64,000 nucleotides of DNA from an uncultured Flavobacteriaceae bacterium (GTDB lineage Bacteria; Bacteroidota; Bacteroidia; Flavobacteriales; Flavobacteriaceae), in contig CALOEQ010000016.1 in the NCBI GenBank assembly GCA_942492425.1, positions 43,156-107,155 on the forward strand, given 5' to 3'. Shown one piece after another: positions 16,497-55,748 of this stretch. Position numbers and translations under genes: made by a program. Position 1 is the stretch's first letter, and each line of letters starts with the position of its first letter. The notes under the pieces were generated by a model. That model saw only the letters and a program-made list of their open reading frames with translations. It was not told where the DNA came from and ran no database searches.

Positions 16497-18116
16497 ATGT
16501 ATAAACCCCTCATATACGTCGCGGTGATTTTTCTTCTGGCCGGGTGCCAGGAAAAAACAGTAGCCGACCTCATTGTAACAAACGCCAAAATCATAACCGT
16601 CGATGACTCTTTTTCATCTGCGGATGCCTTCGCTGTGGCGGATGGAAAGTTCCTCGCTGTAGGTTCCAAAAAGGAAATCATGTCTCAGTTTCGATCTCAG
16701 AACAAGATAGATGCCGACGGAAAAACCATTGTTCCGGGCCTGATTGACGGTCATTGCCATTTTTACAATTTGGGCATTTTCATGCAGAAGGTCGACCTGG
16801 CTGGAACGGAGAGCTACCAGGAAGTCCTGGATCGCGTGGTTGCGTTCCAAAAAGAACAGAAGTCAGACTTTATTATTGGTCGGGGCTGGGATCAAAACGA
16901 TTGGGAGAACAAGGAGTATCCAACCCGCAAAGAACTGGATCGTCTCTATCCGAAGACTCCTGTGGCCCTCACCCGGATTGACGGACACGCCATGCTGGCC
17001 AACAAAGCCGCTCTTGACCTGGCAGGAATCGATTCGAATACCCAGGTTGAAGGAGGCGAAATCATCGTTGAAAATGGAAAAGCGACAGGGGTTCTGGTCG
17101 ACAATGCCATGAACCTGGTGGAGGCTGTTATTCCAGCTCCCGACCGGGACACCAAGATCAAGAGCCTGCTCGATGCACAAGAGAAATGTTTTTCACTGGG
17201 GCTGACTTCTGTAAGTGATGCGGGTCTTGACCGGGAGATCATTGAGCTCATTGACAGCCTTCAAAAGGCACAATCTCTCAAGATGAGAATCTATGCCATG
17301 ATCTCTGCCACGAAAGAAAACCTGGATCACTATCTATCGGCAGGAACATCCAGGACCGACAGACTGAATGTCTCGTCTTTCAAGGTTTACGCCGACGGAG
17401 CATTGGGTTCCAGAGGTGCGGTTTTGAAAGAATCCTACTCAGACCGGGAGAATCATTTTGGAGCGATGGTGACCCCGCTTGACACCCTGAGTGAAATCGC
17501 CCGCAGGCTCTCCAGGTCGGATTTTCAAATGAATACACATGCCATCGGCGACTCGGCAAATGCTTTTGTGCTGAAGACCTATGCCAAAAACCTTAAGAGT
17601 CAGACCAATCGTCGCTGGAGGATCGAGCACGCCCAGGTGGTATCCCCGGATGACTTCCTTTATTTTACAGAAATTCTTCCATCCATCCAACCTACGCATG
17701 CCACAAGTGACATGTATTGGGCCGAGGACAGACTGGGTTCCGATCGAATCAAAGGAGCTTACGCTTTCAAGGAATTGCTCGACATCAACGGAAGGGTTGT
17801 TCTCGGGACTGATTTCCCCGTTGAGAAAGTTGACCCCATGCTCACTTTTTACGCTGCTGTGGCCCGCCAGGACCTCAGTGGCTTCCCGGAGGGAGGATTT
17901 CAGATGCAAAACGGCTTGAGCCGGGAAGAGACCCTAAAGGGAATGACGATCTGGGCCGCTTATGGCAATTTCGAAGAAGGGGAGAAAGGATCCATTGAGC
18001 CGGGCAAATTCGCTGACTTTGTAATTCTTGACAAGAATATCATGGAGATCGATATCGATGAGGTGCCTGAAACCAAAGTCCTTGGAACCTATGTGAATGG
18101 GGAAAAAGTATACTAG
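16497..18116 (+). CDS. Amidohydrolase 3 family (YtcJ-like) lipoprotein
   Basis: Lipobox LLAGC, PGLIDGHCH, ADGALGSRGA, THAIGD, RIEHAQ, QPTHATSD, GTDFPVE, GSIEPGKFADFV. Start taken at MYKPL. Confidence 0.9.
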   Translation: MYKPLIYVAVIFLLAGCQEKTVADLIVTNAKIITVDDSFSSADAFAVADGKFLAVGSKKEIMSQFRSQNKIDADGKTIVPGLIDGHCHFYNLGIFMQKVDLAGTESYQEVLDRVVAFQKEQKSDFIIGRGWDQNDWENKEYPTRKELDRLYPKTPVALTRIDGHAMLANKAALDLAGIDSNTQVEGGEIIVENGKATGVLVDNAMNLVEAVIPAPDRDTKIKSLLDAQEKCFSLGLTSVSDAGLDREIIELIDSLQKAQSLKMRIYAMISATKENLDHYLSAGTSRTDRLNVSSFKVYADGALGSRGAVLKESYSDRENHFGAMVTPLDTLSEIARRLSRSDFQMNTHAIGDSANAFVLKTYAKNLKSQTNRRWRIEHAQVVSPDDFLYFTEILPSIQPTHATSDMYWAEDRLGSDRIKGAYAFKELLDINGRVVLGTDFPVEKVDPMLTFYAAVARQDLSGFPEGGFQMQNGLSREETLKGMTIWAAYGNFEEGEKGSIEPGKFADFVILDKNIMEIDIDEVPETKVLGTYVNGEKVY

Positions 18117-18670
18117 ATATCGAAACGAATCGGTGCGGTCACCCGGGCCGTGTCCCATCCCAGGACCATATTGATGTTTTTGCCCTTTTCTTTGAAGGCG
18201 ATTGAGAACGCCTCGATAAATTCGGCACGACTCACTTTGGCCTGAACCCTTGCCACATCGTATTTTTCATCGTATTCGTAGGTACCCCAAACATCCGTCT
18301 TTGAGCTGAGAATCAGGGTCCATTCTTTTTCGTTGGGAATCGCGTAGAGAACATAGGTTCCTGCCTTTACTTCGGTTCCTCCAAAGAGCACGTCCTTGTA
18401 AAACACAACTTCTGTAGCCTCATTGGCACCTACTCTCCAGATCTGACCGTAGGGAATCACTTCTTCAAAAAGGTCCCTGCCCTTTTTCATGGGTCTGCCA
18501 TAAAGCACTTTTATGCTTGGAGGAGCAATTTTATTGGTCCTGAAATAGACAATGTCGTGGGGACTTTCATCGAGATCCTTGAAGTCTTGAGCTTGAGCGC
18601 TCCCAATGGATAGTAGCGTCACAAAAGTGAACAAACAGGAAAATAAGAGGGTCTTTTTCATCGCAATCAT
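18113..18670 (-). CDS. DUF2911 domain protein
   Basis: Signal peptide; YGRP.KKGR, IPYGQIWRVGANEATE, GTYVLYAIP.EKEWT. Confidence 0.85.
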   Translation of the reverse strand: MIAMKKTLLFSCLFTFVTLLSIGSAQAQDFKDLDESPHDIVYFRTNKIAPPSIKVLYGRPMKKGRDLFEEVIPYGQIWRVGANEATEVVFYKDVLFGGTEVKAGTYVLYAIPNEKEWTLILSSKTDVWGTYEYDEKYDVARVQAKVSRAEFIEAFSIAFKEKGKNINMVLGWDTARVTAPIRFDI

Positions 18671-18705
18671 CTTTTCAAATTCTCGTTTCGCATTGGGTTT
18701 CAAGG

Positions 18706-19272
18706 TTAGATTTTGGCCAGCATCGGGCTCGTGTCATCCAATGGAATATCCACCCGGGTTTCCTCCCAGGCCAGAACCATAAAAGCATCTTTGAAATCTT
18801 TCTTGAAGGCAATGGAGAAAACGTCAAGTGGTTCATTCACGTCCTTCTTGACTTTTATCTTGAATCGGGCCACATCTTTCTCCGGGTTGTAGAAAAAGGC
18901 GCCCCAGGTATTCGTATTGGAATTCAGGATTATGGTCCATTCTTTCTTGCCCGGTATGGTGTGCATTACATAAGTTCCCTGCTTTACCAGCTTGTTTCCG
19001 AACATCATGTCCTTGTAGAAAGTGATTTCGGTCGCCTCGTTGGCACCGGTTCTCCATATCTCTCCGTAGGGAACGAGTTTGCCAAAAACCTTTCCTTCTT
19101 CAACGGAGGGCCTGCTGTAGACCACTTTGACCAATGGATCTGATTTCTGGTTCGGCCGTAAATAGGCAATATCCACTGGGGCCTTATCCAATTGATCAAA
19201 CCGTTGGGAAAATGCATTAGACTGGAAAAAGAGCGCACACAGGATGGCACAGGTAATAGCAATTTTTTTCAT
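18706..19272 (-). CDS. DUF2911 domain protein (tandem paralog)
   Basis: VVYSRP, LVPYGEIWRTGANEATE, GTYVMHTIPGKKEWT; clearly similar to the downstream gene. Confidence 0.85.
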   Translation of the reverse strand: MKKIAITCAILCALFFQSNAFSQRFDQLDKAPVDIAYLRPNQKSDPLVKVVYSRPSVEEGKVFGKLVPYGEIWRTGANEATEITFYKDMMFGNKLVKQGTYVMHTIPGKKEWTIILNSNTNTWGAFFYNPEKDVARFKIKVKKDVNEPLDVFSIAFKKDFKDAFMVLAWEETRVDIPLDDTSPMLAKI

Positions 19273-19445
19273 AGCAACAAATAATTATTCGATAATCATT
19301 CGAAGGTTTATAACGAAGAATACCCTGAAATATTTTATCATTTCTCTCCAAAAAATCAGAAAGACGGATGTTAAATAGGGTTAAAAGGCGGGTGCATGGC
19401 ATTAAAATACTATTTTTGTACTTGCGAATATTAGAATGTCTAGAA

Positions 19446-20120
19446 ATGAAGCTATTGATTGTCGAGGATGAGCTTGAATTGCTGAATTCCACTTGTGTAT
19501 ACCTGCAGAAAGAGGATTTTGTGTGCGAACCGGCTTCGAATTTCTTTGAAGCGGAGGACAAATTGCTTTCCTACAATTACGACGTCGTGATACTCGACAT
19601 CAACCTTCCGGATGGGAATGGACTGAATCTGCTCAAATATATCAAGGAGAAGAGCCCGGAAACAGGAGTTCTAATTGTTTCGGCCAAGGATTCACTCGAT
19701 GACAAGCTCAAGGGCCTCGACCTGGGAGCAGATGACTACATCACCAAGCCTTTTCACCTGGCCGAATTGAATTCCAGGGTCAATTCTCTTTTGAGAAGAA
19801 GAAAGTTCGAAGGGAACAACAATATAATTTTTGAGGAAATCGAGATCGATCCGGTGGCAAAGATCGCCCTGGTGAATGCCAAGCCCCTGGATCTAACCAA
19901 GAAGGAGTACTTTCTTCTATTGTACTTTATCACAAATAAAAACAGGGTACTTACCAAAGAGGCGATCGCTGAGCACCTATGGGGTGACAATATAGACATG
20001 GTCGACAATTTTGACTTTATCTACACCCACATGAGAAATTTGAGAAAGAAACTCAAAAAAAGCGGGGCCAACGACTATCTGCAGACAATTTACGGTCTCG
20101 GCTATAAATTTGGAGAATAA
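19446..20120 (+). CDS. OmpR/PhoB-family response regulator
   Basis: LLIVEDE, LDINLPDGNG, GADDYITKPF, winged helix with HMRNLRKKL and TIYGLGYK. Confidence 0.95.
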   Translation: MKLLIVEDELELLNSTCVYLQKEDFVCEPASNFFEAEDKLLSYNYDVVILDINLPDGNGLNLLKYIKEKSPETGVLIVSAKDSLDDKLKGLDLGADDYITKPFHLAELNSRVNSLLRRRKFEGNNNIIFEEIEIDPVAKIALVNAKPLDLTKKEYFLLLYFITNKNRVLTKEAIAEHLWGDNIDMVDNFDFIYTHMRNLRKKLKKSGANDYLQTIYGLGYKFGE

Positions 20121-20141
20121 TCCTCAAGTAATGAGTCCCAG

Positions 20142-21389
20142 GTGAAGCTAATTGAGAAAACAAGAAGGAAATACATTCCTTACGCCATTCTGATCTTTGT
20201 CATCTCAAGTGTGGTGATCTATTTTACCTTGATGCGGATCACCATCGCCAAGCAGGATGAAAAACTCAAATGGGACAAGGAGCTCATTGCCCAAAAGATC
20301 AAATACGATTACCCTTTGCCAATTTTTGAGGTGGATGACTACAAATCGAAAACACCGGTCAAGGACACCTTATATTTCAAGGACACCCTTATTTATCAGG
20401 TGGTCAGCGGAGTAGAGAAATATGAATTGTACAGGCAACTGACTTCCATTGAAAACTTGCAGAACAGAACCTATCGTATTGTTACGAGAACTTCACTTGT
20501 TCGAAACCAGGATTACATTCTTATTATAACCCTTTCGGTTGGAATCGTGGTTCTCCTGCTGATGATCACAGTCTATTTTGTCAACACACATGTCATGAGA
20601 AAAGCCTGGCTGCCCTTCTATGAAAATCTTCGGATCGTCAAGAACTTCAGCGTTGAGGACAACAAGCCAGTCACGCTCGAGAAATCAGGAATCGACGAGT
20701 TCGAGGAACTCAACGACTCCCTGACGCGTCTCACCGATAAGATCATTTCAGATTTCAACAACCTGAAGGAGTTTACCGAAAACGCATCACACGAGATGCA
20801 GACCCCCCTGGCCATCATGCAGTCAAAATCCGAGATGCTGCTGCAATCTGAGAATCTCAATCCTGAACATATTGATCACATCCGAGCCATCTACACTTCT
20901 GTGCAGCGCCTATCCAAATTGAACAAGACGTTGCTGCTTCTATCAAAAATTGAGAACAACCAGTTCACCGAAAGAGAAACTATCGACGTCAACAAGAGCA
21001 TTGAGAGACAATTGGATATCTTTGAAGACTTTATCGAGAACAAAAAACTTGAACTGGTCATGAATACAGCGATGGATGTCACAATTAAAGCAAATCCTTT
21101 GCTGTTTGACATGGTGATATCAAACCTGATCAGCAATGCGATCAAACACAATGTCAAAGGCGGGAACATTACGATATCCACCACCAAACTCTTTGTCAGT
21201 GTATCCAATTCGGGAGCCCCGACCAAACTGGATTCCTCATCCTTGTTCGAACGATTCAAAAAAGAGAGCCAATCGTCGAATTCCTTCGGACTCGGATTGG
21301 CAATCGTCAAGAAAGTTTGCGACAACTACAACTGGAAGATCACCCACTCTTTTGCTGAAGACCAGCACAATATTTCCGTTTACTTCTAG
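20142..21389 (+). CDS. Sensor histidine kinase (cognate of the upstream regulator)
   Basis: Two TM helices, FTENASHEMQTPLAI, NLISNAIKHN, FERF, GLGLAIVK. Confidence 0.94.
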   Translation: MKLIEKTRRKYIPYAILIFVISSVVIYFTLMRITIAKQDEKLKWDKELIAQKIKYDYPLPIFEVDDYKSKTPVKDTLYFKDTLIYQVVSGVEKYELYRQLTSIENLQNRTYRIVTRTSLVRNQDYILIITLSVGIVVLLLMITVYFVNTHVMRKAWLPFYENLRIVKNFSVEDNKPVTLEKSGIDEFEELNDSLTRLTDKIISDFNNLKEFTENASHEMQTPLAIMQSKSEMLLQSENLNPEHIDHIRAIYTSVQRLSKLNKTLLLLSKIENNQFTERETIDVNKSIERQLDIFEDFIENKKLELVMNTAMDVTIKANPLLFDMVISNLISNAIKHNVKGGNITISTTKLFVSVSNSGAPTKLDSSSLFERFKKESQSSNSFGLGLAIVKKVCDNYNWKITHSFAEDQHNISVYF

Positions 21390-21426
21390 AAGGTTCCCAG
21401 AATTTCAGCAAACATATCTCCCAGTC

Positions 21427-21460
21427 TTCAGAATTTCTTTAGAATGACACCTTATGTTTG
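21427..21460 (+). promoter_or_regulatory. Putative response-regulator box (11-bp direct repeat) plus Bacteroidota -7 element, unit 1
   Basis: TTCAGAATTTC-TTTAGAATGAC (21427-21448), then TATGTTTG (21453-21460) matching TAnnTTTG. Confidence 0.6.
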
Positions 21461-21466
21461 CCTTGT

Positions 21467-21685
21467 AATTGGATGTTGTTACTCATTCAGTAACTATTTC
21501 AGAACGTTCAAAATTCATGCTATGAATACTGAAATAAGCTAAACATCAATTGATTCTCAACGAGACCAGAATATTTTGAGGGGAATATGAAGTTTTCGAA
21601 CAGAATCAGGTATAAATTGAAACATTAAGCTGTTTTGATTTGCAATAATAAGCCTGTAATTGACTCAATTGCAGGCTTTTATTTT
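21467..21685 (+). ncRNA. Candidate sRNA 1 (TCS-regulated; boundaries approximate)
   Basis: Lies between a promoter and a terminator hairpin (AAGCCTGTAATTG-ACT-CAATTGCAGGCTT-TTATTTT). No long ORF. Shares two motifs with unit 2. Confidence 0.45.
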
Positions 21686-21709
21686 AAAAATTTCAATTCT
21701 GAGCAAAAC

Positions 21710-21743
21710 TTCAGATTTTCTTCAGAATTCATACCTACTTTTA
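21710..21743 (+). promoter_or_regulatory. Putative response-regulator box plus -7-like element, unit 2
   Basis: TTCAGATTTTC-TTCAGAATTCA (21710-21731), then TACTTTTA (21736-21743), with the same 7-nt spacing as unit 1. Confidence 0.55.
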
Positions 21744-21749
21744 CGTCAG

Positions 21750-21949
21750 TTTTGATAGCAGCGCTCTTTTTTGTTGCTTCATGACTTTCAATTAAAAGTA
21801 AAACTTTAGTAGTTTTTGCTGAAAGATTAAAATATTGGACTGAGGGGAATGATATTTTAGATCGATCGGCGTTGCAAATACAACAAATATTAAGCTATTT
21901 TAATTTGCAAAATAAAAAACCTGTTCAACGTGTTGAGCAGGTTTTTTTT
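21750..21949 (+). ncRNA. Candidate sRNA 2 (paralog of sRNA 1; boundaries approximate)
   Basis: Ends in the hairpin AAAAAACCTGTTCAAC-GT-GTTGAGCAGGTTTTTTTT. Contains TGAGGGGAAT and ATTAAGCTATTTTAATTTGCAA, as in unit 1. Confidence 0.45.
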
Positions 21950-21968
21950 GTGCTGTTCTACAACTTAT

Positions 21969-23531
21969 CTAATTGGATGGTGCCGTTGTCATTTGTTGTA
22001 GAACTTTGTCGACACTCAGGCTGCCACTTTTCGCGGGTGGGAAGTCTTTGAACGAAGACAGAAAGTTTGAGACAATCGCCTGTGCCGGAACCATCGTCCA
22101 CATCTTTTCACCTTGCCAACGCAGATACATCAAACTCTCGCCAGGGGCCCTTTCATAAGGATCCTGCCTGAGATTCACAATGATTGGCCAACTCGGAGAT
22201 TTTCTGTAAGCAGTCGTCAGGTTTCCTTCAATTATTGAAAAATGCACTTTCCAATCCTTATAACGAAGTGCATTCAAATTGCCTCCGGCGTCAAAATAGA
22301 ATATTTCCTTGCGGTATCCTTCTGGATTCTTTCCGGTCAGCATATCCATTTGATTGTACCCGTCGAGATGTACTTTAAACGTTTTGCCATCTGCCTTGTA
22401 TCCGCTCAACAACTTATTCTTCAAATCGGTTTCACCCAAAGCAGCTGCGAAGGTTGGCATCCAGTCCTCATGGCTGAAAATACCATTGATGACTGTTCCA
22501 GGCTCTATCTTACCAGGCCATCGCACCAATTGAGGCACTCTGAAGCCTCCTTCCCAGGTCGTTCCTTTTTCCCCTTTGAAAGGAGAGGTTCCACCATCGG
22601 GCCAGCTCATCATTTCTGCTCCATTGTCTGTACTGAAAACAACTATAGTATTGTCCGCAATTCCGAGCTCATCCAACTTATCCAGCAACTTTCCGACAAC
22701 ATAATCCAGCTCCATCATTCCATCTCCATAAAGACCCCCGCCTTCAGAGCTGTTCACCCATTTTTCAGCGAGATGGGTCCATACGTGCATCCTTGTGCTG
22801 TTGTGCCATAAAAAGAAAGGCTTCCCGCTTTTGGCCTGCTCTTCAATGAATTTGAGCGAACGGTCCAAAAGATCCATCTCAACCGTTTCCATTTTTTTCG
22901 TATCCAGCGGACCGTGGTCTTTGATGGTCTGTTTTCCTACCCTACCCCATCTCGGATCCTCAGTCGAGTCGTCTTTGCCCGTTGCATAGGTTTCCAGAAC
23001 ACCTCTGGGGCCAAATTTCTTGTGAAACTCCTCATCTTTGGGATACTCCGGATCTTCAGGCTCTTCCTCAGAATTCAAATGATAGAGATTTCCGTAGAAC
23101 TGGTCAAATCCATGGAGGGTGGGCAAAAATTCGTTCCTGTCACCCAGGTGATTCTTTCCGATCTGAGCCGTCGAGTAACCATAATTCTTGAGCATCTGCG
23201 CAATGGTCATATCAGAGTCTCTGATTCCTTCCTTGGCACCTGGCATGCCTATGGTGAGCATCCCGGTCCTGAAGGGGCTTTGCCCCATAATAAACGCCGC
23301 TCTGCCCGCGGTACAGCTCTGCTGTGCATAAGCATCGGTCATGATTGCACCTTCATTTGCAATTCGATCGATGTTGGGAGTCATGGGCTTTACCATGCCC
23401 CTGTGGTATGCACTGATGTTATCCACGCCCAAATCATCTCCCCAGATAACAATAATATTTGGCCTATCCTGGCCATACAACGAAGTGCTGACTATAAAAA
23501 GCAGCAATACTAATTGATCTATTTTTCTCAT
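21969..23531 (-). CDS. Arylsulfatase (S1 formylglycine-dependent sulfatase, Cys type)
   Basis: Signal peptide, PNIIVIWGDDLG, SCTAGRA (C-x-A-x-R), GKNHLG, HGFDQFYG, FSTDNG, KGTTWEGGFRVP. Confidence 0.95.
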   Translation of the reverse strand: MRKIDQLVLLLFIVSTSLYGQDRPNIIVIWGDDLGVDNISAYHRGMVKPMTPNIDRIANEGAIMTDAYAQQSCTAGRAAFIMGQSPFRTGMLTIGMPGAKEGIRDSDMTIAQMLKNYGYSTAQIGKNHLGDRNEFLPTLHGFDQFYGNLYHLNSEEEPEDPEYPKDEEFHKKFGPRGVLETYATGKDDSTEDPRWGRVGKQTIKDHGPLDTKKMETVEMDLLDRSLKFIEEQAKSGKPFFLWHNSTRMHVWTHLAEKWVNSSEGGGLYGDGMMELDYVVGKLLDKLDELGIADNTIVVFSTDNGAEMMSWPDGGTSPFKGEKGTTWEGGFRVPQLVRWPGKIEPGTVINGIFSHEDWMPTFAAALGETDLKNKLLSGYKADGKTFKVHLDGYNQMDMLTGKNPEGYRKEIFYFDAGGNLNALRYKDWKVHFSIIEGNLTTAYRKSPSWPIIVNLRQDPYERAPGESLMYLRWQGEKMWTMVPAQAIVSNFLSSFKDFPPAKSGSLSVDKVLQQMTTAPSN

Positions 23532-23608
23532 AAAATAAAGTTTAGTTGATGATAAGTTCTTTGTAAAAATACGGCCAAAATCAAGACGTATTCCACGACA
23601 GGAAATTC

Positions 23609-23661
23609 AAAAGGGGACAAAAAGGGGACAAAAAAAGATAAAAAGGGACAAAAAGGGAGCA
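23609..23661. repeat. Five helically phased AAAAGGG(G)ACA-type repeats upstream of the sulfatase
   Basis: AAAAGGGGACA x2, AAAAAAGATA, AAAAGGGACA, AAAAGGGAGCA; period 10-11 bp. Confidence 0.8.
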
Positions 23662-23683
23662 ATAAAATGTTGAATTGCCTTTT

Positions 23684-24550
23684 CTAAATTTGATCTACAA
23701 ATTCCTCAAGTTTGACATCTGTCCGGCTCAAACCGATTTTCATTCTGATTCTGTATCTTTTTTTCTTGATTGCCTCCTTGCCTATATTTAGCAATGACGC
23801 AATCTGAAATCCACTGAGCTTGATCTTGAGATAAGCGAGATATTTGACTTCCGAATTTGTCAGAGAAGGGTATTTCGTTGTGAGATTTCTGAAAAAATTC
23901 TCATGGACTTCATTGAACCTCAATTGAAAAACATCCCAGAGCTCTTTTTTTCTTGATTCAAGATTTAATCTATGCTCCAATTCGTTCAACTCGTTCCTAA
24001 CATCCTCTATGGAATCCAGCCCTTTGAGGACTTTCAATTTCCTGCTCAACTCCGATTTCAATCGGATCAATTCAGCATTTTGTTCGCTGAACGTGAAAAG
24101 CTCCCGGTTTTTCCGGTTTAACTTAAACCTCAAAGTCTCCAATTCTTTGCGGGTCATCACGTAGTCACTTACGTCTAAACCGACACCCAGAAAACAGGTT
24201 TTACCGCGTGATACGAACTTGTATCCTTCAAAGAGATAAGGCAATGTGTCTCCATTTTTCAACCTCAGGTTGGCGTTGACCTGTTTCACAGTACCTTTCA
24301 ACATTATTTCCGCCAAGCCATTTTGGATTACCCCAAAATCTTCGGGGTAAAAAAATTCAAATACCTTTTTCCCCAGGAGCTCTGCAGAAGAATATCCGGT
24401 TACTTTCTCGTGATTTACATTCCAATGAATCAAATGAAAATCATTTCCCCGCCCTTCGTATATGTAGAAAATGCCTGGCAGAAAATCAATTATCAAATCA
24501 TTCTTGAGCTTGTGCAGGTCAAAATCATTCTGTCCGATTTTCATAATCAA
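23684..24550 (-). CDS. PAS-domain transcriptional regulator with C-terminal LuxR-like HTH
   Basis: PAS features NVNHEKVTGYSSAELLGK and LRLKNG, a coiled coil, and C-terminal F..F.EVH..F...L...YPSLTNSEVKYLAYLKI.LS..QIA.LLNI...AIKKKRYRIR.K. Confidence 0.85.
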   Translation of the reverse strand: MIMKIGQNDFDLHKLKNDLIIDFLPGIFYIYEGRGNDFHLIHWNVNHEKVTGYSSAELLGKKVFEFFYPEDFGVIQNGLAEIMLKGTVKQVNANLRLKNGDTLPYLFEGYKFVSRGKTCFLGVGLDVSDYVMTRKELETLRFKLNRKNRELFTFSEQNAELIRLKSELSRKLKVLKGLDSIEDVRNELNELEHRLNLESRKKELWDVFQLRFNEVHENFFRNLTTKYPSLTNSEVKYLAYLKIKLSGFQIASLLNIGKEAIKKKRYRIRMKIGLSRTDVKLEEFVDQI

Positions 24551-42746: not shown

Positions 42747-43115
42747 TTATTTCTCGACTTTAAGCACATCTTTGATCACCTGCTCCAGGTTGTGCTTTGG
42801 AAGGGCACCCTGGGCCATCTGGGGCTGCTCGTCTGAAGGACAGAACAACATCGATGGAATGCTCCGGATGCCGAAGGCAGCAGAGAGCTCCTGTTCCACT
42901 TCAGTGTCTACCTTATAGATGTCAACTTTTCCGGCATATTCCTCGGATAGTTCCTCGAGGATTGGGGCGACCATCTTGCATGGGCCACACCAGTCGGCAT
43001 AAAAGTCTATGATACAGGGTTTGTCACCCTCGAATTTCCACTCTTTATTTTGTTCGTAGTTGAAGACCTTCTGAAGGAAAGTCTCTTTTGTCAATAACTC
43101 GGTCATCGTATTCAA
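42747..43115 (-). CDS. trxA: Thioredoxin
   Basis: DFYADWCGPCKM, GIRSIPS. Confidence 0.95.
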   Translation of the reverse strand: MNTMTELLTKETFLQKVFNYEQNKEWKFEGDKPCIIDFYADWCGPCKMVAPILEELSEEYAGKVDIYKVDTEVEQELSAAFGIRSIPSMLFCPSDEQPQMAQGALPKHNLEQVIKDVLKVEK

Positions 43116-47856: not shown

Positions 47857-48537
47857 TTAAAAATAGCGTTTCGGCTTGCCGGCCACAAAATCTTTCAGGT
47901 AAAAGGGCTCGAAGTAAGCAAGGTCTTCGTATTGCTCTGCAGCGGCCTTTTTTTCGGCAATCCGGGCCATCTCACGAGCGGAAGGGAACCTGCCTGTAAC
48001 AAAGACGGCATTCGGATGATTGATCACCTCATGGGTCTTGGATGCTCCATCACCCAAAAAGAAGACTTTGTTGTCATTGAGATAATCTGAGAAGGATCCG
48101 GCTTCAATAATTTCTGCCCGGGTCTCCCGAATTTCTTCAAAATGATCATTATACACGGCTGAGTAGACTTCCATTCTTCTTGCGTCCAAAAGGGGTACGA
48201 TAAGGCCTTTCTCAGTCATTTCGATCTGCATGGCCAGACTCTCCAGGGTCGGCACCGAGATCAGCGGCTTTCCTAGGGCATAACAGAGACCTTTGGCTGC
48301 TGAGACCCCAATTCGCAGACCCGTATAAGACCCCGGGCCCTTGCTAACGGCCACCGCATCCAATTCGGCTAGTTTTCTGTCTGAGGAAGCCATCACTTCC
48401 AGGATAAAAGAGTGTAGCTTCTCTGCATGCGAGAATTTCTCCTCGTGCAGCTCTTTCAAAGAAATCACTTCTCCATCCGCTGCAAGCGCGACCGAGCAAT
48501 TCTTTGTAGCCGATTCGATACTCAGGATAAGGGCCAT
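47857..48537 (-). CDS. tsaB: tRNA threonylcarbamoyladenosine biosynthesis protein TsaB
   Basis: IESATKNCSVA, AVSKGPGSYTGLRIG, LDARRMEVY. Confidence 0.97.
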   Translation of the reverse strand: MALILSIESATKNCSVALAADGEVISLKELHEEKFSHAEKLHSFILEVMASSDRKLAELDAVAVSKGPGSYTGLRIGVSAAKGLCYALGKPLISVPTLESLAMQIEMTEKGLIVPLLDARRMEVYSAVYNDHFEEIRETRAEIIEAGSFSDYLNDNKVFFLGDGASKTHEVINHPNAVFVTGRFPSAREMARIAEKKAAAEQYEDLAYFEPFYLKDFVAGKPKRYF

Positions 48538-55443: not shown

Positions 55444-55515
55444 GCGAAAGTAGCTCAGGGGTAGAGCATCACCTTGCCAAGGTGAGGGTCGCGGGTTCAA
55501 ATCCCGTCTTTCGCT
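55444..55515 (+). tRNA. tRNA-Gly (GCC)
   Basis: Acceptor GCGAAAG/CTTTCGC, anticodon arm TCACC-TTGCCAA-GGTGA, T-loop GGTTCAAATCC; CCA not encoded. Confidence 0.97.
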
Positions 55516-55662: not shown

Positions 55663-55748
55663 GCTCGGATGGTGGAATTGGTAGACACGTTGGACTTAAA
55701 ATCCAATGGACAGCAATGTCCGTGCGGGTTCAAGTCCCGCTCCGAGTA
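55663..55748 (+). tRNA. tRNA-Leu (TAA)
   Basis: Acceptor GCTCGGA/TCCGAGT, anticodon arm TTGGA-CTTAAAA-TCCAA, long variable arm, GGTTCAAGTCC. Confidence 0.97.

Follow-up and report, generated by a model that had tools for sequence, protein, structure and literature searches.

The adjacent paralogous small RNAs (sRNAs) OmrA and OmrB of enterobacteria are reportedly activated by the EnvZ-OmpR two-component system, and are said to have their own promoters and terminators, conserved ends, a diverged middle and an envelope-related regulon. The CiaR-dependent csRNAs of streptococci reportedly form a multicopy family, in which a hexamer-N5-hexamer repeat for an OmpR-type regulator replaces the -35 element. 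Tandem siblings are reported also for Pseudomonas aeruginosa, where read-through of the first terminator of PrrF1 and PrrF2 is said to give the longer PrrH. As to promoter layout, Pho-box and PmrA-box promoters have two direct repeats, spaced by 11 bp, that overlap the upstream element and lie at a fixed short distance from the downstream element. Here we analyze two tandem candidate sRNA genes (unit 1 and unit 2) that follow the kinase gene of a two-component system in a 64,000-nt stretch of DNA from an uncultured marine Flavobacteriaceae bacterium (GenBank assembly GCA_942492425.1, contig CALOEQ010000016.1, positions 43,156 to 107,155; hereafter the window). The paralogy and multi-target role of OmrA and OmrB are described in a bioRxiv report (10.64898/2026.06.26.734639), and the control of csRNAs by CiaRH has been described as well (PMC9603419). 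Within the Bacteroidota, FopS and GibS of Bacteroides thetaiotaomicron are paralogous sRNAs connected with cell-surface functions and with the RRM protein RbpB (PMC11697453).

The two units resemble each of these systems in part. As in OmrA/OmrB, two adjacent paralogous sRNA genes have each their own terminator and their own, here predicted, OmpR-family-dependent promoter. They differ from OmrA/OmrB in that no match in sequence or structure is detectable, the units are about 200-220 nt long rather than about 85 nt, their motifs lie in hairpin loops and not at a single-stranded 5' end, and the array adjoins the regulator and kinase genes, has 2-4 copies and is hosted by a phylum without obvious Hfq. 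The csRNAs, the comparison drawn in an earlier note on this DNA, likewise are a multicopy sRNA family with an OmpR-type direct repeat in place of the upstream promoter element. They are, however, shorter, mostly dispersed and endowed with pyrimidine-rich seeds that mimic the anti-Shine-Dalgarno sequence, whereas the motif exposed in the units is G-rich, their genes stand in tandem beside the two-component system and Rfam returns no match. RNA contigs that continue across the first terminator recall PrrF/PrrH, but PrrF is repressed by Fur rather than activated by a two-component system, and the sequences are unrelated. FopS belongs to a paralogous sRNA family of the same phylum; unlike the units, it is composed of a single-stranded 5' seed and a terminator, occurs at 14 dispersed loci under ordinary sigma-A promoters with no known regulator box, and is in Rfam, yet gives no match here. 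Finally, the repeat layout is similar to that of the Pho and PmrA boxes, the best NCBIfam match of the regulator is PmrA, and PAP2, membrane sulfatase-family, TolC-like and porin genes are among the targets elsewhere, although the half-site is CTTCAGA and not the Pho/PmrA consensus, and the promoter is of the Bacteroidota -7 type.

The data give good support to a new RNA family of a known kind, that of two-component-controlled sibling sRNAs. Our survey of the literature and of Rfam found no described Bacteroidota sRNA under classical two-component control and no description of the array system and, as far as we found, this is the first such case proposed for Bacteroidota. When positions 19000-24000 were scanned against Rfam to E = 10, only terminator look-alikes were returned. 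At the gathering score, the whole window and five other loci with the same regulator box gave only two tRNAs beyond terminator look-alikes; these tRNA genes, at 55444-55515 and 55663-55748, are the only such matches in the window. The best sub-threshold score against OmrA-B, csRNA, FopS and all 4227 other families was 28 bits, compared to a gathering score of 49, and involved a terminator only.

Two tandem units follow the kinase gene

The stop codon of the kinase gene (21389) is separated by a gap of 579 bp from a convergent sulfatase gene on the minus strand (21969-23531), and both units lie inside this gap. Each is composed of a direct repeat (the box, CTTCAGAWTTTCTTYAGAAT), a TAnnTTTR -7 element 7 nt further on, about 200-220 nt free of open reading frames (ORFs) and a terminator:

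21426 to 21445, plus strand: box 1, direct repeat CTTCAGAATTT / CTTTAGAAT with an 11-bp period, covering about -39 to -20
21453 to 21460, plus strand: -7 element TATGTTTG of the unit 1 sigma-A promoter, exactly 7 nt past box 1
21465 to 21686, plus strand: candidate sRNA unit 1 (type 1), of about 220 nt when counted from the predicted start through the terminator tail; fold z-score -4.6; 63.3 bits (E-value 2e-8) with R1, a covariance model of the 3' domain
21577 to 21586, plus strand: G-rich motif UGAGGGGAAU of unit 1, read from the sequence
21650 to 21686, plus strand: intrinsic terminator 1, leaky, from a terminator scan; 13-bp stem (21650-21678) followed by UUAUUUU (TTATTTT in DNA), crossed by contigs in runs X5-X8 and X10
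21709 to 21728, plus strand: box 2, CTTCAGATTTT / CTTCAGAAT, read from the sequence and by pattern search
21736 to 21743, plus strand: -7 element TACTTTTA of unit 2, exactly 7 nt past box 2, the same distance as in all units
21748 to 21950, plus strand: candidate sRNA unit 2 (type 2), about 203 nt; 77.6 bits (E-value 4e-11) with R1; fold z-score -3.9
21914 to 21950, plus strand: intrinsic terminator 2, with an A-run, a GC stem (21920-21941) and U8; the inverted repeat (I5, 21914-21947) is 94% complementary

The boxes are 283 nt apart and the 3' motifs of the two units 264-265 nt. In the earlier note, a module of about 280 bp was described as occurring twice directly after the kinase gene. The shared motifs listed there were found again. 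The G-rich 10-mer TGAGGGGAAT occurs at 21577 and 21841 and nowhere else in the window (0.34 copies expected by chance; 2 copies reached in 5 out of 100 shuffles). The 22-mers ATTAAGCTGTTTTGATTTGCAA (21624) and ATTAAGCTATTTTAATTTGCAA (21889) are identical at 20 out of 22 positions, with 0.00 expected, and are offset from the G-rich motif by 47 nt in unit 1 and 48 nt in unit 2. The same holds for the terminator proposed directly after each unit, which corresponds to the stem at 21650-21678 with its U-rich tail and to the stem at 21914-21947 with T8. Terminator 2 is two-way in form and common to unit 2 and the convergent sulfatase gene.

Each unit has a predicted regulator-dependent promoter

Box 1 (TTCAGAATTTCTTTAGAAT, 21427-21445) and box 2 (TTCAGATTTTCTTCAGAAT, 21710-21728) are both exact matches to a degenerate 19-mer. 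When up to 3 mismatches are allowed, this pattern is found 3 times in the window, while 0.29 occurrences are expected per 64 kb and 3 are reached in none of 100 shuffles. The direct repeats with an 11-bp period reported before at 21427 and 21710 are therefore above chance. We discarded the third site, at 48125 (3 mismatches), as a chance match within an ORF and with no -7 element. A leading C should be added to the box, which moves its starts to 21426 and 21709; its consensus over 129 distinct sites is CTTCARAWTYTCTTYAGAWT. The form of the repeat (CTTCAGAWTYT / CTTYAGAWT, 11-bp period) is that of the tandem repeats, of 10-11 bp period, bound by OmpR/PhoB-type regulators, and its position, at about -39 to -20 and a constant 7 nt from the -7 element in every unit, is that of activator-dependent promoters.

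The consensus of the -7 element recognized by sigma-A in Bacteroidota, including flavobacteria, is TAnnTTTG at -12 to -5 (PMC9723704; PMC7366714). The elements TATGTTTG and TACTTTTA (21453-21460 and 21736-21743), exactly 7 nt after each box, confirm the TAnnTTTG-like sequences noticed previously. Because this element sits at -12 to -5 (PMC9723704), transcription is predicted to start at 21465 and 21748, close to the starts near 21467 and 21750 that had been proposed, though not at the same positions. A promoter of this composition (box, TAnnTTTR and a purine at +1) and a terminator made of a stem and a U-run are kept in all 65 units that we collected from this and other loci (see below). Moreover, the positions that the search pattern leaves free behave in the 129 box sites as they do in a real promoter: TTT is followed by G in 67% of the sites and by A in 28%, the box is followed by T in 80%, and the predicted +1 is a purine in 76%.

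We propose that each unit has its own sigma-A promoter, in which the tandem repeat CTTCAGA-N4-CTTYAGA would replace the usual -33 element. A box ending 7 nt before the -7 element is the layout of a promoter that needs an activator of the OmpR/PhoB type. The best candidate for this activator is the regulator encoded upstream (19446-20120), in its phosphorylated form, and synthesis of the RNAs would accordingly follow the signal sensed by the kinase. Transcription would start near 21465 and 21748 and end at the intrinsic terminators, with a leaky terminator 1 giving rise also to a longer, two-unit transcript. The loops UGAGGGGAAU and UUAAGC, plus the unpaired GUUCAAAA in unit 1, would be the working surfaces of the RNAs, most likely as seeds for pairing with mRNAs and less likely as protein sites. 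In this scheme, we infer regulator binding, activation rather than repression, the transcribed strand, the exact ends of the RNAs and base pairing in trans.

Each box is preceded, at a distance of one to two helical turns, by a weak additional half-site:

21396 to 21409, plus strand: extra degenerate half-site CCCAGAATTTCAGC before box 1, weak, read from the sequence
21694 to 21705, plus strand: extra degenerate half-site CAATTCTGAGC before box 2, weak, read from the sequence (I10)

In other loci, the half-site of box 2 is seen again ahead of internal boxes, in the form TCAATTCTGAGCAAAAC or TTCAGAATCTGGGC. At the place equivalent to the half-site before box 1, one locus (L001, 5296-5307) has a complete additional CTTCAGAATTTC, some 22 nt before its box. 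This arrangement suggests that more than one regulator dimer may bind.

The array is conserved within Flavobacteriaceae

Overall, we identified 65 distinct units in the window and in 33 other loci, all of them from Flavobacteriaceae. The units form arrays of 2-4, always behind an orthologous regulator-kinase pair, down to 57% kinase identity. The hosts include the cultured Lutimonas halocynthiae and L. saemankumensis, and the closest relative of the window is the metagenome-assembled genome (MAG) Ww435. In the contigs with kinases 96, 86, 72 and 68% identical to that of the window, the gene order is amidohydrolase, two DUF2911 genes, regulator, kinase, gap, gyrB and mdh. The gene-free gap after the kinase spans 570-1020 bp in these four relatives and hosts two units in three of the species and three in the fourth (L005; L006 has the same kinase).

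The covariance model R1 returned 2-4 tandem copies, all on one strand, in the array loci. It gave no match in about 85 loci of other Bacteroidota (approximately 1 Mb of Bacteroidota loci searched), nor elsewhere in the 64-kb window. The check by a covariance model from homologous Flavobacteriaceae loci, which the earlier note had called for, thus recovers the arrays only. The first unit of an array is always of type 1 (5' hairpin with GUUCAAAA) and the last is always of type 2, which indicates that the duplication is old and that the copies keep their positions. The sequence UGAGGGGA is identical in 65 out of 65 units, these having been selected on GAGGGG, and the 24-nt stretch AAAUAUUAAGCUAUUUUAAUUUGCA varies hardly at all among type-2 units, down to a kinase identity of 57%. 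Across lineages whose kinases are only 57-70% identical, motifs of 8-24 nt are invariant.

The units are structured and lack a conserved reading frame

The units fold into several hairpins, four of which are detailed here:

21496 to 21535, plus strand: type-1 5'-domain hairpin AUUUCAG...CUGAAAU (alignment A3), whose internal loop has the almost invariant GUUCAAAA (21506-21513)
21613 to 21642, plus strand: hairpin B of unit 1, from the minimum-free-energy fold; 12-bp stem, loop UUAAGC (21625-21630)
21829 to 21858, plus strand: hairpin A of unit 2, from the fold and alignment A2; 8-bp stem AAAAUAUU / GAUAUUUU, 14-nt loop GGACUGAGGGGAAU
21873 to 21909, plus strand: hairpin B of unit 2; outer helix UGCAAAU/AUUUGCA, inner helix AAAUA/UAUUU, loop UUAAGC (21890-21895)

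The loop of hairpin A displays the G-rich UGAGGGGAAU and the loop of hairpin B displays UUAAGC. The structure of the 3' domain was drawn by hand and tested on a plain MAFFT alignment of the 65 units, using slid and shuffled controls. Within this alignment, 79% of the cells pair, compared to 32-51% when the partners are slid. Changes on both sides of a pair are detectable in 82 cells, compared to 34.5 +/- 4.8 in shuffles, and the covariation score is 0.198, compared to 0.133 +/- 0.009 (reached in 0 out of 500 shuffles). Single helices show the same type of variation. In hairpin A (A2), pair 8/33 is AU 22 times, GC 15 times and CG 5 times, and pair 9/32 is AU 36 times, GC 6 times and UA 6 times. 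The inner helix of hairpin B is 96.3% paired in 64 units, with UA changed to CG in 19 of them. In the 27 units of alignment A3, 93.8% of the cells of the 5' hairpin are paired (33-47% when slid), and its outer helix is paired throughout (100%). The two units of the window also fold better than all 200 of their shuffles, with z-scores of -4.6 for unit 1 and -3.9 for unit 2. Since many of the G-U pairs would be A-C mismatches on the opposite strand, the plus strand is favored; this pattern of pairs is the best evidence at hand for plus as the functional strand.

No ORF is common to the two units of the window, as had been noticed, and comparison of the units in relatives returned no frame that is kept. 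Across units, the median length of the longest ATG ORF is 11 codons. Neither conserved motif is spanned by a frame that stays open in every unit, the shortest open stretch being 2-10 codons in any frame. The units are structured and give no indication of coding, with good support, short of formal proof, for the structure.

RNA is detectable on the array and not on the flanking genes

As evidence of transcription, we relied on Logan assembler contigs from metatranscriptomes, which are strandless and come without local depth. In six metatranscriptome runs (X5-X10) from three studies, the contigs are confined to 21475-21911 and none lies on the kinase or sulfatase gene. Their left edges are at 21475, 21478, 21478, 21479, 21482 and 21486, that is 10-21 nt past the predicted start at 21465, and fit the first predicted start site. 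In the first 60 kb of the window, the array contigs have a depth of 11.6, 45, 110 and 42-97 in four runs, whereas hardly any gene exceeds 5. The only other comparably deep place there is a thioredoxin gene (42747-43115, minus strand, WCGPCK motif) with a depth of 21-25. It is deeper than the array in run X5 (22.2 and 11.6, respectively), while the array is equal or deeper in three of the four runs. Across the second predicted start (21748), depth increases from 11-37 upstream to 62 downstream in run X9 and from 18-22 to 82 in run X25, and X9 has a gap over 21640-21703. A second species, represented by a Lutimonas MAG (L043), also has contigs on both units and none on its kinase.

Two runs (X1 and X2) of a sediment study labelled 'transcriptomic, oligo-dT' (X1-X4) were rejected as evidence of expression. 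In the region 20800-22500 of the window they show flat depth over genes and gaps and contigs of 1-3 kb, which is DNA-like coverage.

The regulator and kinase genes

The two-component system upstream of the array is encoded by two genes:

19446 to 20120, plus strand: response regulator of the OmpR/PhoB type, presumably the protein that activates the boxes; receiver domain (Pfam Response_reg, 1.6e-26) and winged-helix domain (Trans_reg_C, 9e-20)
20142 to 21389, plus strand: sensor histidine kinase with HisKA and HATPase_c (Pfam); NCBIfam NF052314, 'PorY family sensor histidine kinase', 431.8 bits with a cutoff of 350

The best NCBIfam match of the regulator, PmrA, scores 167 bits against a cutoff of 330. 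Since the regulator falls below every NCBIfam equivalog cutoff, it is not an ortholog of PmrA or PhoB. The kinase passes the model of the PorY family, and PorXY controls type IX secretion. Its partner here, however, is a receiver with a winged-helix Trans_reg_C domain and not PorX, which is described as a receiver with a PglZ / alkaline-phosphatase-like domain and without a DNA-binding domain (PMC9757075). NF052314 is a subfamily model rather than an equivalog, and the name 'PorY family' may cover a group far broader than true PorY. Homologs of the kinase number more than 5000, with conserved synteny. The conservation of the recognition helix among distant homologs of the regulator was set aside as uninformative, because the conserved residues match those common to the whole OmpR family.

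Around these genes, two tandem DUF2911 genes (18113-19272 in the window) are divergent from the regulator gene, and no box is present in the promoter region between them and that gene. They accompany the two-component system, in synteny, in every Flavobacteriaceae locus that was examined. Between the DUF2911 pair and the regulator gene, L005 (1969-3174) and L006 (1357-2562), which represent one lineage, have a weak Pfam match to PagL (lipid A deacylase), and such a PagL-like gene would fit an envelope theme for the neighborhood. On the other side, the minus-strand sulfatase and PAS-domain genes (21969-24550 in the window) are inserted between the array and gyrB. This insertion is absent from the closest relative (L119) and most other loci, and present in L003.

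The box is associated with the regulator across Bacteroidota

One genome per species was scanned with the pattern CTTCARAWTYTCTTYAGAW-N8-TAnnTTT. The box and the -7 element were found together in at least 119 genome stretches, compared to about 0.1 expected according to our own estimate under equal base frequencies. All but two of the matches listed come from Bacteroidota or Ignavibacteria. Among them, 64 loci have a homologous kinase on the same strand, with the box at most 700 nt downstream of it. Another 9 loci have the box at most 200 nt upstream of a homologous regulator gene, which would be a classic sign of autoregulation. Homologs of the regulator (44-100% identity) adjoin the box in 73 of the at least 119 loci listed, and in 11 more a regulator-kinase pair lies elsewhere in the 8-kb piece. 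The remaining 36 loci among the matches listed include about 14 whose upstream sequence, under 1 kb, is too short for a judgment.

Outside the clade with sRNAs, the gene behind the box usually encodes a small secreted PepSY-like protein (loci L007-L125). Other genes driven by the box encode a TonB-type receptor, a PAP2 phosphatase, a membrane sulfatase-family enzyme, a TolC-like protein, a porin and the regulator itself, which suggests that the box regulon is envelope- or metal-related. The box looks like the mark of a conserved, previously undescribed Bacteroidota regulon. A Prevotella target was taken at first as ArnT-like; Pfam gave no confirmation and this guess was dropped.

Other short candidate RNAs also lie behind the box. 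In a Bacteroidales locus (L038, 4815-4894, minus strand), the box drives a candidate RNA of about 80 nt with a hairpin GUUAUC..GAUAAC, an unpaired CAUAGCUAAAUGG and a strong terminator. The same RNA is found in L048, L067, L071, L083, L091 and L093, is followed by a conserved ORF for a 146-aa membrane protein, and has no match in Rfam. Its AGCUA core is also present in the Flavobacteriaceae RNAs, in their UUAAGCUA loop. Another type of terminated RNA, with UAUAGCUA, lies in L115 and L123, and in Aureibaculum and relatives and in Spirosoma (L024, 6594-6680; L114, 944-1030; L095; L045) a short hairpin or terminated transcript lies behind the box, with the ORF at a distance. Short RNAs may have arisen several times as the local output of this system.

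Weighing of the evidence and alternative explanations

We consider it probable that the units are regulator-driven, trans-acting sibling sRNAs, and we are clearly more confident in the wider claim, which leaves the mode of action aside, that they are functional RNAs driven by the regulator. That they are sibling sRNAs and local outputs of the regulator was already the proposal of the earlier note, and it is supported by the 65 units, the covariation, the RNA confined to the array and the association between box and regulator, which goes well beyond what a single locus could tell.

Several observations weigh against this proposal. The RNA contigs are unbroken through terminator 1 and box 2 in runs X5-X8 and X10, as well as in the related species, and a two-unit read-through RNA hence exists. 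With regard to the discrete transcripts that had been predicted, RNA is abundant and confined to the array, in the six runs and likewise in the second species, and the contigs also pass through terminator 1 and box 2. Because the contigs are unbroken, conservation and the rise in depth are all that backs the second promoter. The right ends of the contigs, at 21856-21911, fall short of the end of terminator 2, and the adapter remnants in X9 are in both orientations and give no strand. Neither in the window nor in the closest loci of the clade does a box precede the regulator gene. RNAalifold returned no consensus structure on the mixed MAFFT alignment of 65 units; for this reason, and because the sequences are mutually related, the structural support is good without being a formal proof. 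In the minimum-free-energy fold of the window, the G-rich motif of unit 1 is partly paired. Finally, the complement of the G-rich loop, one of those that the earlier note proposed to look for in 5' UTRs, does not occur beyond chance in the 64-kb window. Nor is it conserved near the neighboring genes in 34 loci, and both searches returned only antisense copies of the units and scattered coding sites. This missing target site says little, since the search covered only about 0.3 Mb around the arrays.

Among the alternatives, the one that survives best, although we regard it as unlikely, is that the two-component-driven RNAs do not pair with mRNAs and act instead by binding or titrating a protein, for example of the RRM type, or as structural RNA. 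The conserved motifs do lie in hairpin loops, and the RNA around them, of about 200 nt, is elaborate and has several hairpins; the local searches in the window and 34 loci, with the coverage just given, returned no complementary target site. However, loop-exposed seeds are common in base-pairing RNAs, and each RNA has one G-rich motif, unlike the repeated sites that are typical of sponges. The units are also longer and more structured than the Bacteroides sRNAs made of seed plus terminator (PMC11697453), and Bacteroides has no obvious homologs of Hfq and ProQ (PMC7366714) and uses RbpB to bind sRNAs (PMC11697453), all of which would be in line with a protein-binding role.

It is less likely still that the array is a single transcription unit, with the first box as its sole promoter, a long transcript that is cut, and internal boxes that are RNA sequence or relics. 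This would explain why the contigs of X5-X8 and X10 are continuous from about 21478 to 21871-21911, and why those of the related species span terminator 1, box 2 and the -7 element. Yet the internal boxes keep the full consensus, the 7-nt spacing and the purine at +1 in every unit of every array, and each unit closes with a strong stem and a U-run. In addition, box 1 lies outside the RNA, which indicates that the box works as DNA. Depth is higher past the second start in X9 and X25, and X9 is interrupted before it, which also argues for two promoters.

We regard as very unlikely that the array is a long cis-acting leader of gyrB, which would adjust gyrase expression by its two-component promoters and leaky terminators. 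In 30 of the 33 sRNA-bearing loci, gyrB follows the array directly and on the same strand; the last terminator of the array ends about 130-260 nt before the gyrB start codon, and terminators are read through within the array. This adjacency needs no functional link, however, since the whole neighborhood is syntenic. In the window and in L003, sulfatase and PAS genes on the opposite strand intervene and the array is nevertheless intact and expressed. Moreover, gyrB retains its own TAnnTTTG element near its start, the contigs stop before or at the last terminator, and the depth of gyrB is 0-1.3, compared to 11.6-110 for the array.

Hardly any weight, slightly less than for a gyrB leader, goes to the units being decayed leaders or pseudogene remnants of a lost protein gene, transcribed but functionless. 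The earlier note had raised this reading for the case in which relatives carry protein genes behind the boxes. Such genes are indeed present in distant relatives, and other orders hold PepSY-like proteins, TonB-type receptors, a PAP2 phosphatase and others in the slot after the kinase. When the units were compared with 71 box-driven proteins, however, the best E-values were 0.008-0.02 and scattered, with no similarity at the protein level; one apparent protein match turned out to be a spurious ORF inside a unit. The invariant motifs of 8-24 nt, the compensatory changes in stems, a copy number grown to 2-4 and a terminator for each unit point to selection. With no protein-level remnant and with the units under selection, the decayed-leader reading fails.

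Least likely of all is that the units encode very small proteins of about 15 aa or fewer, since the short ATG ORFs of unit 1 (MKFSNRIRYKLKH after GAGGGGAAU, and MNTEI inside the 5' hairpin) have related peptides in the closest relatives but are lost or shifted in distant units (MEP*, MYR*, MIF*), no frame is open over either motif in all units (minimum 2-10 codons), and variation keeps base pairs rather than codons.

Implications for Bacteroidota

RNA-based regulation in Bacteroidota is barely charted, and neither Hfq nor ProQ is obvious in the phylum (PMC7366714). Regulator-driven sibling sRNAs at this locus would come as a package, with a likely regulator, a precise candidate box, predicted starts, exposed motifs, high expression in natural sediments and two cultured Lutimonas hosts. 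The box is also a sequence handle on a regulon that appears widely conserved in Bacteroidota and includes PepSY-like proteins, outer-membrane receptors and envelope-modifying enzymes, and it makes testable whether the output of a two-component system can switch from a protein gene to an RNA array.

A broader and more tentative possibility, which we hold to be rather doubtful at present, is that a single ancient OmpR-type system has a regulon throughout Bacteroidota, marked by the box, and that its canonical local output is the gene directly after the kinase. This slot would have been taken by the sRNA array in the Lutimonas clade and by the unrelated RNA of about 80 nt in Bacteroidales, and the AGCUA core (UUAAGCUAUUU compared to CAUAGCUAAAU) would reflect a common target site. 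If this were true, the two-component system of the Lutimonas clade would act mainly, or only, through RNA, and there would be a conserved tie between a two-component system and sRNAs across the phylum.

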